From the NCBI RefSeq assembly GCF_003018235.1, contig NZ_CP027439.1: DNA of 64,000 nt; one strand, 5' to 3'. Positions 8,138 to 45,883 of the stretch are shown one piece after another; position 1 is the stretch's first letter, and every line of letters starts with the position of its first letter. The position numbers were made by a program, and so were the translations under genes. Origin of the DNA: Escherichia coli. Its GTDB lineage: Bacteria; Pseudomonadota; Gammaproteobacteria; Enterobacterales; Enterobacteriaceae. The notes beneath the pieces are model-generated. The model was given only the letters and a program-made list of their open reading frames with translations. It searched no databases and was not told where the DNA came from.

Positions 8138-8425
8138 ATGAGTACCCGAAATATCCACGTTAACACCGCGTCGTACACGCTTCTTGTTGCCGGGAAGAAA
8201 AAAAACACCGGGGAAGAGTGGGACGTCCTGGAATTCAGCAGCCTGACTGAGCTGAAAAAATATCGCAAAAGCCACCCGGAAAAGATGGCCTTCAGCTATA
8301 GCTACGCGCTCAGCCAGGGTGTGGATACGCAGTTCCGCCATATCAACATTGCGGAAGCTGATCACTTCAAACAGTTCCTGCGTCAGATTAAGCGTGCCGG
8401 CCTCGATATCCGGGCGATCTGCTGA
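8138..8425 (+). CDS. Leading-region protein, orf95-like
   Basis: 95-aa ORF directly downstream of Frpo-like copy B. Confidence 0.6.
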   Translation: MSTRNIHVNTASYTLLVAGKKKNTGEEWDVLEFSSLTELKKYRKSHPEKMAFSYSYALSQGVDTQFRHINIAEADHFKQFLRQIKRAGLDIRAIC

Positions 8426-10239: not shown

Positions 10240-10535
10240 GGTTCTCACCACCAAAAGCACCACACCCCACGCAAAAACAAGTTTTTGCTGATTTTTCTTT
10301 ATAAATAGAGAGTTATGAAAAATTAGTTTCTCTTACTCTCTTTATGATATTTAAAAAAGCGGTGGTACTGACTATTTTTATAAAAAACATTATTTTATAT
10401 TAGGGGCGCTGCTAGCGGCGCGGTGTGTTTTTTTATAGGATAACGCCAGGGGCGCTGCTAGCGGTGCGTCCCTGTTTGCATTATGAATTTTAGTGTTTCG
10501 AAATTAACTTTATTTTATGTTCAAAAAAGGTAATC
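10240..10535. other. oriT: nic region, inverted repeats and direct repeats consistent with TraM binding sites
   Basis: Minus strand reads GGTGGTGAGAACCACC...TTTGCGTGGGGTGTGGTGCTTTTGGTGG (F-type nic motif, nick near 10261/10262); direct repeats GGGGCGCTGCTAGCGG at ~10403 and ~10451; AT-rich tracts. Confidence 0.8.
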
Positions 10536-10923: not shown

Positions 10924-11039
10924 AAGAAATTTGACTTCGTTCAAATATCAGAGTTTTTATGATTTAAAAGGGTGACAGTACGAAAGATAATTAGTATATT
11001 AATTACGTGGTTAATGCCACGTTAAAATTTGAATTTGAA

Positions 11040-11115
11040 AATCGCCGATGCAGGGAGTTCACGTCTCCCTGCATCGACTGTCCATAGAATCCTTTGTGAG
11101 GAGGTTCCTATGTAT
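11040..11115 (-). ncRNA. finP: FinP-like antisense RNA opposite the traJ leader (approximate)
   Basis: Stem-loop GATGCAGGGAG...CTCCCTGCATC (11047..11075) plus a second stem spanning the traJ RBS and start; position follows the FinOP paradigm. Ends not mapped. Confidence 0.4.
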
Positions 11116-11799
11116 CCGATGGATCGTATTCAACAAAAACATGCTCGTCAAATAGATCTGCTGGAAAATCTGACGGCAGTTATTCAGGATTATCCAAATC
11201 CAGCCTGTATCAGGGACGAAACTGGAAAATTTATTTTTTGCAATACGCTGTTTCATGAGTCATTTCTTACACAAGATCAAAGTGCTGAAAAATGGCTTCT
11301 GTCGCAGAGAGATTTTTGTGAATTGATCTCTGTCACAGAGATGGAAGCATACAGGAATGAGCATACGCATCTTAATCTTGTAGAGGATGTTTTTATTCAG
11401 AACAGATTCTGGACAATATCTATTCAGTCATTTCTTAATGGACACAGAAATATCATTCTGTGGCAATTTTATGATGCTGCTCATGTTCGTCATAAAGACA
11501 GTTATAATCAAAAAACGATTGTCAGTGATGATATCAGAAATATAATCAGAAGAATGAGTGATGATTCTTCTGTATCATCATATGTAAATGATGTCTTTTA
11601 CTTATATAGCACCGGAATCAGTCATAATGCTATAGCAAGAATATTAAACATATCCATCTCCACATCAAAGAAACACGCGTCTCTGATATGCGACTACTTC
11701 TCTGTTTCTAATAAAGATGAGTTAATCATCTTACTCTACAATAAAAAGTTTATTCATTATTTGTACGAGAAGGCTATGTGTATCATAAATACGCGTTAA
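11110..11799 (+). CDS. traJ: Transfer operon activator TraJ
   Basis: 229 aa from ATG at 11110 with RBS GAGGAGG; lies between traM and traY. Confidence 0.8.
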   Translation: MYPMDRIQQKHARQIDLLENLTAVIQDYPNPACIRDETGKFIFCNTLFHESFLTQDQSAEKWLLSQRDFCELISVTEMEAYRNEHTHLNLVEDVFIQNRFWTISIQSFLNGHRNIILWQFYDAAHVRHKDSYNQKTIVSDDIRNIIRRMSDDSSVSSYVNDVFYLYSTGISHNAIARILNISISTSKKHASLICDYFSVSNKDELIILLYNKKFIHYLYEKAMCIINTR

Positions 11800-33423: not shown

Positions 33424-34155
33424 ATGAAAACAAAAAAATTGATGATGGTTGCACTGGTCAGTTCCACTCTGGCCCTTTCAGGGTGTGGTGCGATGAGCAC
33501 AGCAATCAAGAAGCGTAACCTTGAGGTGAAGACTCAGATGAGTGAGACCATCTGGCTTGAACCCGCCAGCGAACGCACGGTATTTCTGCAGATCAAAAAC
33601 ACGTCTGATAAAGACATGAGTGGGCTGCAGGGCAAAATTGCTGATGCTGTGAAAGCAAAAGGATATCAGGTGGTGACTTCTCCGGATAAAGCCTACTACT
33701 GGATTCAGGCGAATGTGCTGAAGGCCGATAAGATGGATCTGCGGGAGTCTCAGGGATGGCTGAACCGTGGTTATGAAGGCGCAGCAGTTGGTGCAGCGTT
33801 AGGTGCCGGTATCACCGGATATAATTCCAGTTCTGCCGGTGCCACACTCGGTGTGGGCCTTGCTGCCGGTCTGGTGGGTATGGCTGCAGATGCGATGGTG
33901 GAAGATGTGAACTATACCATGATCACGGATGTGCAGATTGCAGAGCGTACTAAGGCAACGGTGACAACGGATAATGTTGCCGCCCTGCGTCAGGGCACAT
34001 CAGGTGCGAAAATTCAGACCAGTACTGAAACAGGTAACCAGCATAAATACCAGACCCGTGTGGTCTCAAATGCGAACAAGGTTAACCTGAAATTTGAAGA
34101 GGCGAAGCCTGTTCTCGAAGACCAGCTGGCCAAATCAATCGCAAATATTCTCTGA
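33424..34155 (+). CDS. traT: Surface exclusion lipoprotein TraT
   Basis: 243 aa, lipobox LSGCGA. Confidence 0.93.
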
Positions 34156-34407
34156 TTATCTTCCGGAGGCTGGTCTGACCGGCCTCCTGACTGACGCCTC
34201 GCTTTGCTCGTTGTCCAACCCCGGAAAGAAATAAAATAAATTTTATTTCTCCCCGGCGTTTCCGAAATAAATATGAAAACACTGAGCGGTTGTGCAAATT
34301 CTTTGTGCGACCGTGAAGTGTTGCCGGCGAAGCCGGAATTTAACGGTTATTAATCTTTTCATCATTAATAATCAGTCCGACTGACTTTTTTTCTTCGGAA
34401 TATCATC

Positions 34408-36570
34408 ATGAGTTTTAACGCAAAGGATATGACCCAGGGCGGTCAGATTGCGTCCATGCGTATCCGCATGTTCAGCCAGATCGCCAATATCATGCTTTAC
34501 TGCCTGTTTATTTTTTTCTGGATACTCGTTGGTCTGGTTTTATGGGTAAAAATAAGCTGGCAGACGTTTGTGAACGGCTGTATTTACTGGTGGTGTACCA
34601 CGCTGGAAGGCATGCGGGATTTAATCAAGTCCCAGCCGGTCTATGAGATCCAGTATTACGGCAAAACCTTCCGGATGAATGCTGCTCAGGTACTGCATGA
34701 TAAATATATGATCTGGTGCGGAGAGCAGCTATGGTCCGCATTCGTTCTGGCCACAGTTGTGGCACTGGTTATTTGCCTGATTACCTTCTTTGTTGTCTCC
34801 TGGATTCTGGGGCGTCAGGGTAAACAACAGAGCGAAAATGAAGTCACAGGTGGTCGTCAGCTGACAGACAATCCGAAAGACGTTGCCCGGATGCTGAAAA
34901 AAGACGGCAAGGACTCCGATATCCGGATTGGCGACCTGCCGATTATCCGGGATTCTGAAATCCAGAACTTCTGTCTGCACGGCACGGTCGGGGCCGGTAA
35001 GTCGGAAGTTATCCGTCGTCTGGCCAACTACGCCCGTCAGCGCGGTGATATGGTGGTGATTTATGACCGTTCAGGGGAATTTGTTAAAAGTTACTATGAT
35101 CCCTCCATCGATAAGATCCTGAATCCGCTGGATGCCCGCTGTGCCGCCTGGGATTTATGGAAGGAGTGTCTGACACAGCCGGATTTTGATAATACGGCAA
35201 ATACCCTGATCCCGATGGGCACAAAAGAGGACCCGTTCTGGCAGGGTTCAGGACGTACCATTTTTGCGGAAGCGGCGTACCTGATGCGTAATGACCCCAA
35301 CCGCAGCTACAGCAAACTGGTGGACACACTGCTTTCCATCAAAATCGAAAAACTGCGTACCTTCCTGCGTAATTCACCGGCGGCCAACCTGGTGGAAGAG
35401 AAAATTGAGAAAACGGCGATTTCCATCCGTGCTGTGCTGACCAACTACGTGAAAGCCATCCGTTACCTGCAGGGGATTGAGCATAACGGTGAGTCTTTTA
35501 CCATCCGTGACTGGATGCGTGGTGTCCGGGAAGATCAGAAAAACGGCTGGCTGTTTATCTCGTCGAATGCCGACACCCATGCCTCCCTGAAGCCGGTGAT
35601 CTCCATGTGGCTGTCCATTGCCATTCGTGGTCTGCTGGCAATGGGAGAAAACCGTAACCGTCGTGTGTGGTTTTTCTGTGATGAGCTACCCACGTTACAC
35701 AAACTGCCGGACCTGGTGGAGATCCTGCCGGAAGCCCGTAAGTTCGGTGGCTGTTATGTGTTTGGTATCCAGTCCTATGCCCAGCTGGAAGATATCTACG
35801 GTGAGAAAGCGGCTGCCACGCTGTTTGACGTCATGAACACCCGTGCCTTTTTCCGTTCTCCCAGCCATAAGATTGCAGAGTTTGCTGCCGGTGAGATTGG
35901 TGAGAAAGAGCACCTGAAAGCCAGCGAGCAGTACTCCTACGGTGCTGATCCGGTACGTGACGGGGTATCGACCGGTAAGGATATGGAGCGCCAGACGCTG
36001 GTCAGTTATTCCGACATTCAGTCTCTGCCGGATTTGACCTGTTATGTCACCCTGCCCGGACCGTATCCGGCAGTAAAACTCTCACTGAAATATCAGGCAC
36101 GTCCGAAGGTTGCCCCTGAGTTTATTCCGCGTGACATCAACCCGGAAATGGAGAACCGCCTGAGTGCCGTACTTGCCGCAAGGGAAGCAGAAGGTCGTCA
36201 GATGGCCAGCCTCTTCGAACCGGATGTGCCGGAGGTTGTTTCCGGAGAAGACGTGACTCAGGCTGAACAGCCGCAACAGCCGCAACAGCCGGTGTCTCCT
36301 GCCATCAACGATAAGAAGTCAGATTCAGGTGTGAATGTTCCGGCAGGGGGGATCGAGCAGGAGCTGAAAATGAAACCGGAAGAAGAGATGGAACAGCAAC
36401 TGCCACCCGGGATCAGTGAATCCGGTGAAGTGGTGGATATGGCCGCTTATGAGGCATGGCAACAGGAAAATCATCCGGACATCCAGCAGCAGATGCAGCG
36501 TCGTGAAGAGGTGAACATTAATGTGCACCGGGAGCGCGGGGAGGATGTTGAGCCGGGAGATGATTTCTGA
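34408..36570 (+). CDS. traD: Type IV coupling protein TraD
   Basis: 720 aa with Walker A GTVGAGKS and C-terminal QPQQPQQP repeats. Confidence 0.95.
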
Positions 36571-44569: not shown

Positions 44570-45160
44570 ATGAAGCTGATTATTTTTATTCTTATTGTTC
44601 TGATTATTGCAGCGTTACTTATCCGGATTATCCTCAGAAGTGTAAATCAGCATTCTCCTTTGCTGATGCAATTGCATGCGGCAGGTATACGGACCGGTGA
44701 TGCAGAGCGAATACTGTCCAGCGGTGAATACTGGCAACGTCAGAAGACGCTGCTGACAGAAAGGGAAGTCAGTTTTATGAAAGGACTGTTCAGAATTGTG
44801 GATATGAAGCGGTGGTATCTGTGTCCGCAGGTACGGGTCGCGGATATCGTCCAGCTGAACGGGAATATCCGGCCACGATCACGCCAGTGGTGGCAGTTAT
44901 TCAGGATGGTGTCTCAGTGGCATGTTGATGTGGTTATCGTTGAGCGGCGTTCGTTCAGTATTGTTGCAGCAGTAGAGCTGGATGATGCCAGCCATTTACG
45001 ACCGGAACGCAGACGCCGGGATATTCTTCTGGAAGAGGTTCTGAGGCAGGCTGGTATTCCGTTGCTCAGAAGCCACGATGCCAGAAAACTGCTGCAGATG
45101 ACCGGAGAATGGCTGAATACAACAGGGGCTGATCAGCAGTCACCGGAACATCGTAGCTGA
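44570..45160 (+). CDS. Hypothetical protein with N-terminal membrane anchor (possible nuclease-fold domain)
   Basis: 196 aa; MKLIIFILIVLIIAALLIRIIL anchor; no firm family assignment. Confidence 0.5.
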   Translation: MKLIIFILIVLIIAALLIRIILRSVNQHSPLLMQLHAAGIRTGDAERILSSGEYWQRQKTLLTEREVSFMKGLFRIVDMKRWYLCPQVRVADIVQLNGNIRPRSRQWWQLFRMVSQWHVDVVIVERRSFSIVAAVELDDASHLRPERRRRDILLEEVLRQAGIPLLRSHDARKLLQMTGEWLNTTGADQQSPEHRS

Positions 45161-45399
45161 CGCCTTCGCGTTGCTCAGTTGTCCAACCCCGGAAACGGGA
45201 AAAAGCAAGTTTTCCCCGCTCCCGGCGTTTCTATAACTGAAAACCATACTATTTCACAGTTTAAATCACATTAAACGACAGTAATCCCCGTTGATTTGTG
45301 CGCCAACACAGATCTTCGTCACAATTCTCAAGTCGCTGATTTCAAAAAACTGTAGTATCCTCTGCGAAACGATCCCTGTTTGAGTATTGAGGAGGCGAG

Positions 45400-45660
45400 A
45401 TGTCGCAGACAGAAAATGCAGTGACTTCCTCATTGAGTCAAAAGCGGTTTGTGCGCAGAGGTAAGCCTATGACTGACTCTGAGAAACAAATGGCCGCTGT
45501 TGCAAGAAAACGTCTTACACACAAAGAGATAAAAGTTTTTGTCAAAAATCCTCTGAAAGATCTCATGGTTGAGTACTGCGAGAGAGAGGGGATAACACAG
45601 GCTCAGTTCGTTGAGAAAATCATCAAAGATGAACTGCAGAGACTGGATATACTAAAGTAA
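45400..45660 (+). CDS. copB: Replication copy-number repressor CopB (RepA2)
   Basis: 86-aa protein [47 protein letters not shown], IncFII RepA2 family. Confidence 0.88.
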
Positions 45661-45764: not shown

Positions 45765-45855
45765 CAGGAGCCAGAAAAGTGAAAACCCCGATAATCTTCT
45801 TTAACTTTGGCGAGTGAGAAAGATTATCGGGGCTAACAAGAAACTGCATAGAAGC
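45765..45855 (-). ncRNA. copA: CopA (inc) antisense RNA of the repA1 leader (approximate ends)
   Basis: Long imperfect hairpin 45786..45832 (ccccgataatctt...aagattatcgggg) with a loop containing GCGCCAAAG on the minus strand, matching the CopA/CopT stem-loop II arrangement between copB and tap. Confidence 0.5.
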
Positions 45856-45883
45856 TGTTGCTCTATGCGGGGAGTATAGTTAT

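Follow-up and report, generated by a model that had tools for sequence, protein, structure and literature searches.

Two candidate phiX174-type primosome assembly sites on the transferred strand of an F-like plasmid of Escherichia coli

Behind the stop codon of traT, in the spacer between traT and traD of an F-like plasmid, lies a short stretch of DNA in which a nearly constant frame is joined to a hairpin, and the same frame is found a second time on the plasmid with a different hairpin. What is this element, and on which strand does it act? We consider it in a stretch of 64,000 nucleotides of Escherichia coli DNA (contig NZ_CP027439.1), called the window below. The window is an IncFII F-like plasmid, with Rfam matches to the traJ 5'UTR/FinP (11005-11116) and CopA (45777-45866) and to the pHK01-type antisense RNAs AS-traG, AS-traI and AS-pc02, while at either of the two loci the Rfam search returns no family under gathering and E-value thresholds. 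An earlier note on this DNA had suggested a shared terminator or processing element, or a small mobile insertion module.

The two copies, about 77-80 nt long with extents refined by a covariance model, are listed in Table 1 as PAS-1 and PAS-2 together with the features around them. The conserved frame with a differing internal hairpin that the earlier note described is real, and both loci read as it claimed: on the + strand, CTGACGCC(T)TCGC(T/G)TTGCTC(A)GTTGTCCAACCCCGGAAA is followed by the differing inner hairpin and then by CCCGGCGTTTC. From shuffles the 18-mer GTTGTCCAACCCCGGAAA would be expected 0.03 times; the window has it exactly twice, on the + strand at 34210 and at 45178. Read on the minus strand, each copy consists of AAC, a hairpin of 44-45 nt, GTT and then the conserved tail GGACAACGAGCnnnGCGAGGCGTCAG. 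For PAS-1 this reading is GGAAAC-G-(stem-loop)-G-GTT-GGACAACGAGCAAAGCGAGGCGTCAG, or in full AACGCCGGGGAGAAATAAAATTTATTTTATTTCTTTCCGGGGTTGGACAACGAGCAAAGCGAGGCGTCAG, where the tail is the complement of what the earlier note had called the left frame, CTGACGCCTCGCTTTGCTCGTTGTCCA, and the hairpin is made of the AAC/GTT base, a G.G mismatch, a 16-bp stem with two G.T pairs and a TTTA loop. PAS-1 is 100% identical to the copy in the F plasmid. The placement at stop codons holds as well: PAS-1 begins 32 nt past the stop codon of traT (34153-34155), behind a separate GC-rich hairpin, and PAS-2 contains, within its CTGACGCC, the TGA stop (45158-45160) of the upstream gene, a DUF2726 gene according to Pfam. 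Downstream of PAS-2 lies repA2/copB (ATG 45400), 168 nt from the end of the element and about 240 nt from this stop codon.

Table 1. Features of the window that bear on the repeated element (PAS, primosome assembly site; R1, the covariance model described in the text).
Feature	Position	Strand	Basis or remark
oriT nic-site motif GGGTGTGGTGCTTT	10254..10267	-	Exact match, F-type
GC-rich hairpin GGAGGCTGGTCTGACCGGCCTCC	34165..34187	+	Folding; outside the repeated motif
PAS-1, candidate phiX174-type primosome assembly site (ssi)	34187..34263	-	traT-traD intergenic; cmsearch R1 87.7 bits, E 7e-26, full length
PAS-1 conserved single-stranded 3' tail	34187..34216	-	Near-invariant alignment columns
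PAS-1 inner hairpin, 44 nt	34217..34260	-	Folding and family covariation
Weak PAS-like hairpin, status uncertain	34275..34342	+	cmsearch R1 14.4 bits, E 0.02
PAS-2, second candidate phiX174-type primosome assembly site	45153..45232	-	cmsearch R1 78.6 bits, E 6e-23
PAS-2 inner hairpin, 45 nt	45185..45229	-	Folding

The identity of the element is provided by a covariance model, R1, which contains 20 members (from F-like plasmids, P2-like phages, the plasmid pKYM and a chromosomal island) with phiX174 left out. Across the window R1 yields two full members and no more, each of them on the minus strand. On phiX174 it finds the F-G intergenic hairpin of the viral strand at full length (nt ~2305-2375, L043 156-226; 46.8 bits, E 9e-13), where the sequence reads AACGCCGAAGCGGTAAAAATTTTAATTTTTGCCGCTGAGGGGTTGACCAAGCGAAGCGCGGTAGG. 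It is well established that protein n' (PriA, factor Y) recognises this 44-nt hairpin region, the primosome assembly site, a finding attributed to Shlomai and Kornberg in 1980. Judged by sequence and predicted folding, the repeated motif is homologous to the phiX174 primosome assembly site, and this homology makes it a DNA-level signal on the minus strand rather than an RNA. A primosome assembly site is a fork-like hairpin at which PriA, PriB, DnaT and DnaC load DnaB (PMC5778457; PMC8246471). With a probability of roughly 0.7, in our estimate, both copies in the window are PriA-dependent ssi signals for complementary-strand synthesis on the T-strand; we infer the PriA dependence and the role in conjugation, and PriA binding and priming at PAS-1 and PAS-2 are predicted from the homology.

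The likeness to phiX174 extends to several details. Both PAS-1 and the phage site have a 44-nt hairpin with an AACGCC...GGGGTT base, an A/T-rich apex and a loop of 4-5 nt; both have a related 3' tail (GACCAAGCGAAGCGCGGTAG in phiX174 and GGACAACGAGCAAAGCGAGGCGTCAG in the plasmid); and both are oriented on the strand that exists as single-stranded DNA, the activity in the plasmid being a prediction. The two differ in small indels of the tail and in an inner stem of unrelated sequence. They differ also in their host replicon, which is a conjugative plasmid of 60-100 kb with two copies in one case and a 5.4 kb single-stranded DNA phage with one copy in the other.

The ssiA of ColE1/pBR322 (n'-pas, rri), a PriA-dependent lagging-strand signal (PMC3167613), is related in a looser way. 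R1 gives a weak match to ColE1 ssiA on its active strand (13.5 bits, E 0.04), and a motif that the plasmid element shares with the ColE1-type ssiA, compared as CTCACTGACTCGCTGCGCTCGGTCGTTCGGCTGCGGCGAGCGG, is visible by eye. The two share the tail motif CGAGCnnAGCGAG..TCAG in the same orientation, and ssiA is likewise a module that circulates in unrelated replicons and a PriA-dependent ssi on the displaced strand (PMC3167613). Unlike the present element, ssiA has a shorter hairpin that overlaps the conserved motif, contains AAGCGG repeats and belongs to a different sequence sub-family. As a side observation, two ColE1-like plasmids of 1.9-2.1 kb without rep or mob (OW848963.1 and NZ_CP030348.1, MOB-suite type "mobilizable") contain a ColE1-type ssiA (as in L031, 47-111) and, on the other strand, a second site related to the phiX family at 27-29 bits. 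The tail of this second site, GGGCAAGCCG(TCAG)GCGCG(T/C)CAG, presumably resembles the L-strand PAS of pBR322.

The next question is whether it is the sequence or the shape of the hairpin that is kept. In the minus-strand sense, all members read (A)AAC, then a stem of 17-20 bp with a loop of 4-5 nt, then GTT-G(G/A)(A/G)CAACGAGCnnnGCGAGGCG(T/G)(T/C)AG, and the stem sequences are wholly different between members with the pairing retained. In an alignment of 26 members, which is derived from the model and fitted to its structure, so that pairing is somewhat inflated and the counts lean towards structure, 85% of the cells are paired against 67.9% in shuffles, double changes are found in 14 of the 19 pairs, and there are 97 double-change cells against 35; none of 500 shuffles reaches the observed values. 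When the 3' partner is slid as a control, the pairing falls to 40-58%, and independent folds of each sequence agree with the covariation result. What the earlier note had regarded as one shared and discrete cis-element is thus borne out, with a conserved frame and a stem that varies while still paired.

The hairpins are not equally stable on the two strands. When folded with DNA parameters, 20 of the 23 distinct hairpins gain stability on the strand that corresponds to the phiX174 viral strand, where the mean folding energy is -13.5 kcal/mol compared with -9.5 kcal/mol on the complement, and the minimum-free-energy structures contain 41 G.T pairs on the former and 4 on the latter. The values for the minus and plus strands are -14.1 and -10.6 kcal/mol for PAS-1 and -14.1 and -8.1 kcal/mol for PAS-2. 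The minus strand folds better because its G.T pairs become A.C mismatches on the other strand; PAS-2 has three such pairs, and a perfectly paired variant of its hairpin is found in record L011. Since the pairing of the stem is kept through compensatory changes and the strand bias is found across phages, plasmids and islands, the data indicate selection on a single-stranded DNA structure.

We turn our attention to how widely the element is spread. BLAST against the plasmid collection places the motif in at least 5000 plasmid records (Escherichia, Klebsiella, Salmonella and Shigella), so that it is not confined to the two loci, and in complete E. coli genomes there are 6315 plasmid places and 98 chromosomal places. 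Across these thousands of plasmids the tail is near-invariant. Among the matches listed in plasmid and E. coli records no annotated feature lies under the motif, the adjacent gene excepted. The module occurs between traT and traD, between the DUF2726 gene and repA2, between a hypothetical gene and hok in Klebsiella plasmids (L004, L018 and L019, where it has sharp borders with the hypothetical gene before and hok after), in P2-like phages and in the rolling-circle plasmid pKYM. Outside F plasmids the frame of 28-30 nt stays constant and the hairpins are wholly different. These relatives, first reached through weak BLAST hits, are an E. coli chromosomal island, pKYM and its relatives, P2-like phages and a contig of an Acidobacteria metagenome-assembled genome (MAG); the same tail stands next to unrelated hairpins in L026, L027, L028, L029, L033-L036, L014 and phiX174. 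Pattern scans of genome and metagenome contigs return mostly F-plasmid contigs, some of which are wrongly placed in unrelated MAGs, plus the Acidobacteria contig, and a pattern scan of viral contigs does not find the motif. The whole F plasmid has one full family member by R1, in the traT-traD spacer and on the T-strand.

In three of these replicons the strand that becomes single-stranded can be compared with the orientation of the element, and it carries the active orientation each time: in the window (by the nic site), in pKYM (by CTTGATA) and in phiX174 (the viral strand). The plasmid pKYM, of 2.1 kb, encodes a Rep_1 rolling-circle initiator, and the strand with its nick motif of the pC194/phiX type, AAACTTGATACC, is also the one on which the element has its active orientation. 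The element is antisense to rep and lies ~240-310 nt upstream of the nick motif, where it is displaced last, which is the usual position of an sso. In the pKYM-like plasmid L027 (NZ_CP091711.1) the nick motif AAACTTGATACC, at about 55-66, is antisense to the Rep_1 gene; leading-strand synthesis would therefore run opposite to rep transcription. Directly adjoining the PAS-like element is a long inverted repeat (about 100-297). The likeness to the sso of rolling-circle plasmids and of ICEBs1 is one of kind: these too are strand- and orientation-specific hairpins that turn displaced or transferred single-stranded DNA into double-stranded DNA, and the pKYM member resembles an sso in its place on the displaced strand, a short way upstream of the nick site. 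The ICEBs1 sso matters after transfer (PMC4595007). The Gram-positive ssoA, ssoT, ssoU and ssoW differ from the present element in their use of RNA polymerase and in other conserved motifs (RSB, CS-6), and no sequence relation to them is seen.

P2-like phages with the element include 186, PSP3, Wphi, SopEphi and SW9 among many. There the elements lie 1-2 kb downstream of ori and have their active orientation on the sense strand of gene A, which encodes the rolling-circle nickase; they may be lagging-strand start sites of P2-type rolling-circle replication. In phage 186 (U32222.1, 30343-30416) the element lies between orf97 and the annotated terminator t95b, antisense to the p95 operon, and carries no annotation in the record. 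One or two unannotated family members are generally found right of gene A and the tum/DinI genes; SW9 and PSP3 (L028 and L034) have two copies ~400 nt apart that flank a 210-nt ORF. The E. coli chromosomal island (L026, NZ_CM171611.1) has two members as well (2262-2331 and 2497-2573), ~170 nt apart on the same strand, next to a frameshifted CHC2-primase gene and an HTH gene, and E. coli C11 (NZ_CP010133) has this island too.

What remains is the assignment of strands in the plasmid itself. The F-type nic-site motif of the window belongs to the minus strand. The genes of the leading region are encoded on the + strand, and their template is the T-strand (PMC9849209); therefore, the minus strand is the transferred T-strand, and it bears both PAS in the phiX-viral orientation. 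The T-strand enters with oriT first, followed by the leading region, the remainder of the plasmid, PAS-2, PAS-1 and oriT again. Both PAS belong to the tra region, which comes in last, and are distant from the Frpo signals of the leading region. After nicking at oriT this strand moves into the recipient 5' to 3' with both copies on it, and their most likely job would therefore be to start complementary-strand synthesis on the incoming T-strand. In such a scheme, the hairpin of 44-45 nt and the 3' tail of the single-stranded minus strand would fold into a fork-like structure that resists SSB coating; PriA would bind the folded hairpin and tail, by analogy with phiX174 and ColE1/pBR322; PriB, DnaT and DnaC would then load DnaB; and DnaG would lay RNA primers for DNA polymerase III. 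As a counterpoint, a recircularised T-strand could suffice with a single primer, and extra sites are not strictly required.

Discussion of this step is usually limited to the Frpo signals of the leading region. The conversion of the transferred single strand of F-like plasmids to a duplex in the recipient is still called unclear (PMC9849209; PMC7690428). Frpo, ssiD and ssiE of the F leading region are similar to the present element in that they are T-strand signals that act only as folded single-stranded DNA and give primers (PMC7690428; PMC11541004). Frpo is, however, a stem-loop of ~300 nt with -35 and -10 boxes that is read by RNA polymerase in the region that enters first, whereas the present element is 77 nt long, has no promoter hexamers and lies in the region that enters last. 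We see no sequence similarity of the element to ssiD (D90178) or ssiE (D90180), and we reject an Frpo-type single-stranded promoter, as the element is 77 nt in length and no promoter-like hexamers are found in 34050-34450 or 45050-45450. Two PAS on the T-strand would give a concrete second route of conversion, one that would depend on PriA, PriB and DnaT, and the sites are defined 77-nt targets for deletion or inversion. The covariance model could also be used to annotate ssi/PAS in plasmids, P2-like phages and small rolling-circle plasmids.

A wider proposal can be made, which we offer tentatively and at less than even odds: dedicated and strongly conserved PriA landing pads on the T-strands of F-like plasmids, in the tra/rep-proximal region that enters last, would supplement Frpo, and the hairpin-plus-tail module, shared by Microviridae, P2-like phages, rolling-circle plasmids and islands and present as multi-copy inverted repeats in an Acidobacterium, would be a widespread signal, traded horizontally, that hijacks the host restart machinery. 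In the searchable literature we found no paper that links PriA or PAS to the T-strand. A 1991 survey (Nomura et al., Gene 108:15) reportedly mapped ssi signals in F and R100 and is said to have published eleven ssi; the PAS-1 and PAS-2 loci may already be among those signals, and the kind of element is classical.

There is a concern whether a genuine phiX174-type site would have to serve conjugation at all, as it could instead serve vegetative replication or restart, for example by reloading DnaB at forks stalled in the tra operon. Restart is the cellular role of PriA (PMC5778457). PAS-2 is close upstream of repA2, and other family members and ColE1-type ssiA modules adjoin vegetative replication genes, as in L042 (near a replication initiator and parM) and L032 (IncX1, near rep genes). 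In F, however, the only full copy is in the tra region, far from RepFIA. RepFII replication is unidirectional, away from repA; its leading strand would be copied from the minus strand, and a PAS on that template would serve little purpose. This position and the finding that R1-type replication proceeds in vitro without the need for DnaT (PMC4129139) argue against a role in vegetative initiation. A role of PAS sites in restart is possible, and taking both sides together we regard a vegetative or restart function as an unlikely account of the two copies.

Complementary-strand synthesis on the T-strand is also to be weighed against a reading on the opposite strand, i.e. that of a + strand RNA element which acts as a Rho-independent terminator or 3'-UTR for traT and the DUF2726 gene and whose 28-nt frame is an sRNA seed or a processing site. 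Both copies are in the sense orientation after stop codons, the hairpin is followed on the + strand by GTTTC (generally GTTT(C/G/T...), with runs of 5-6 T in L026 and L027), and terminator activity after traT was reported in the old literature. Yet the + strand stem contains A.C mismatches with only 3 U after it, and the RNA stems of this strand are weakened, e.g. -18.4 compared with -28.7 and -10.4 compared with -25.1 kcal/mol. The element is antisense to the surrounding operon in P2-like phages, where phage 186 has its separate terminator, and antisense to rep in pKYM; it has no Rfam match, and its conservation is explained by the homology to a site that works as viral single-stranded DNA in phiX174. 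A consensus terminator scan finds nothing at either hairpin, and with the A.C mismatches of the + strand and the better fold on the opposite strand the terminator or processing element proposed by the earlier note is not supported. We judge an RNA function of this kind very improbable as the explanation of the motif, although a secondary terminator role of the hairpins is possible; as a description of the traT-traD and DUF2726-repA2 spacers, the label of terminator is removed as false. A 3'UTR sRNA with seed and terminator is rejected on the strand asymmetry and on the orientation in the phages and pKYM.

Could the module be present for no function at all, either as a junction spread by recombination among mosaic F-like plasmids or as a decayed miniature mobile element? 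Its borders are sharp in differing contexts (L004, L018 and L019 compared with DUF2726-repA2), the hairpin is absent in one Salmonella plasmid (L005), extra genes are inserted alongside in L001 and L005, and in the Acidobacteria contig related copies are 68-nt inverted repeats around a MazF-like cassette. A functionless relic would hardly be expected, however, to keep the pairing of its stem through many compensatory changes, maintain its strand bias across phages, plasmids and islands and retain a near-invariant tail in thousands of plasmids, and the F loci have no target-site duplications or terminal inverted repeats. We give this explanation hardly any credence. Of the small mobile insertion module in the earlier note, the part that stands is the behaviour as a module in different gene contexts; the part that falls is the insertion, for no terminal inverted repeats or target duplications are seen.

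Four further identities were tried and rejected or set aside. A MITE or transposon end is rejected: there are two copies in the window and one in F, their ends share at most 5 bp (ACGCC), and there are no duplications. An integron attC fails in that, while GTCCAAC fits R'', the 3' side is GTTTCCG and not GTTRRRY, leaving only an AAC/GTT pair, and no integrase or cassette array is present. The G4-type primase (DnaG-only) signal has three adjacent hairpins and a CTG start trinucleotide 3' of hairpin I, whereas the present element has a single hairpin and no conserved CTG in the minus-strand tail. An oriT or relaxase site, also composed of a hairpin and a 3' tail, is set aside: the tail is not known to match any nic site, and the phiX174 homology explains it.

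The traT-traD spacer contains two other hairpins, both on the + strand. The GC-rich hairpin in front of PAS-1 has 10 bp, begins 10 nt past the traT stop codon and lacks a U-run; it is a candidate for the RNA 3' structure of traT. The weak PAS-like hairpin on the far side consists of AAAC, a 17-bp imperfect stem and GTTG, and behind it come a small hairpin, CCGGCGAAGCCGG, and AATTTA. Its homologue in the IncFIIK plasmid L041 is the traT-traD element, where TTTTT stands directly after the small hairpin. The hairpin in the window could be the real terminator of traT or a PAS-like signal for the other strand, with one per strand as in pBR322. In the spacer of L041, R1 gives only a partial, hairpin-only match (16.6 bits), so that no full PAS is evident at that locus. 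The idea that L041 has an inverted PAS, which would break the logic of the T-strand, is rejected, since the match is the homologue of this + strand hairpin.

Other plasmids have changed the same spacer. In the Salmonella F-like plasmid pHL21A (L005, NZ_CP126326.1) the tail and frame are kept and the 44-nt hairpin is replaced by GGTA; the PAS site is therefore dispensable there, or replaced, and this natural hairpin-less variant could serve as a comparison. Its region 673-1560 contains traT with its own AT-rich terminator-like hairpin, then an inserted hypothetical gene of 480 nt, a GC hairpin and the PAS tail, the GC hairpin (GGAGGTCGGTCTGACATGCCTCC, related to that of the window) thus following the inserted gene and not traT. 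In the ETEC IncFII/FIA plasmid L001 (NZ_LR883005.1, 1668-3076) a hypothetical gene of 738 nt lies between the PAS region and a remnant of traD, which is interrupted by an IS3-family element, and the traT-traD spacer therefore seems to be an insertion hot spot.

Two observations concern assemblies from outside the Enterobacteriaceae. Motif-bearing F-plasmid contigs (L007-L013) appear in assemblies assigned to Streptomyces, Microbacterium, Lachnospiraceae, Collinsella and Acinetobacter, where enterobacterial plasmid DNA has almost certainly ended up through contamination or mis-binning. The Acidobacteria MAG contig (L014, JAJEDW010000164.1), a high-GC chromosomal contig, carries the tail (GGACAACGAGCAAAGCGAGGCGTCAG or GAACAACGAGCGGAGCGAGGCGTTAG) next to a short GC hairpin at least five times, at 1762-1810, 1893-1960, 2916-2983, 8139-8198 and 8323-8380. 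A MazF/PemK-like cassette is flanked by two of these copies as 68-nt inverted repeats (81% complementary), two others are 170 nt apart, and a stretch of 28 nt is identical to F plasmids; these copies look like a REP- or MITE-like family built on the PAS-like motif.
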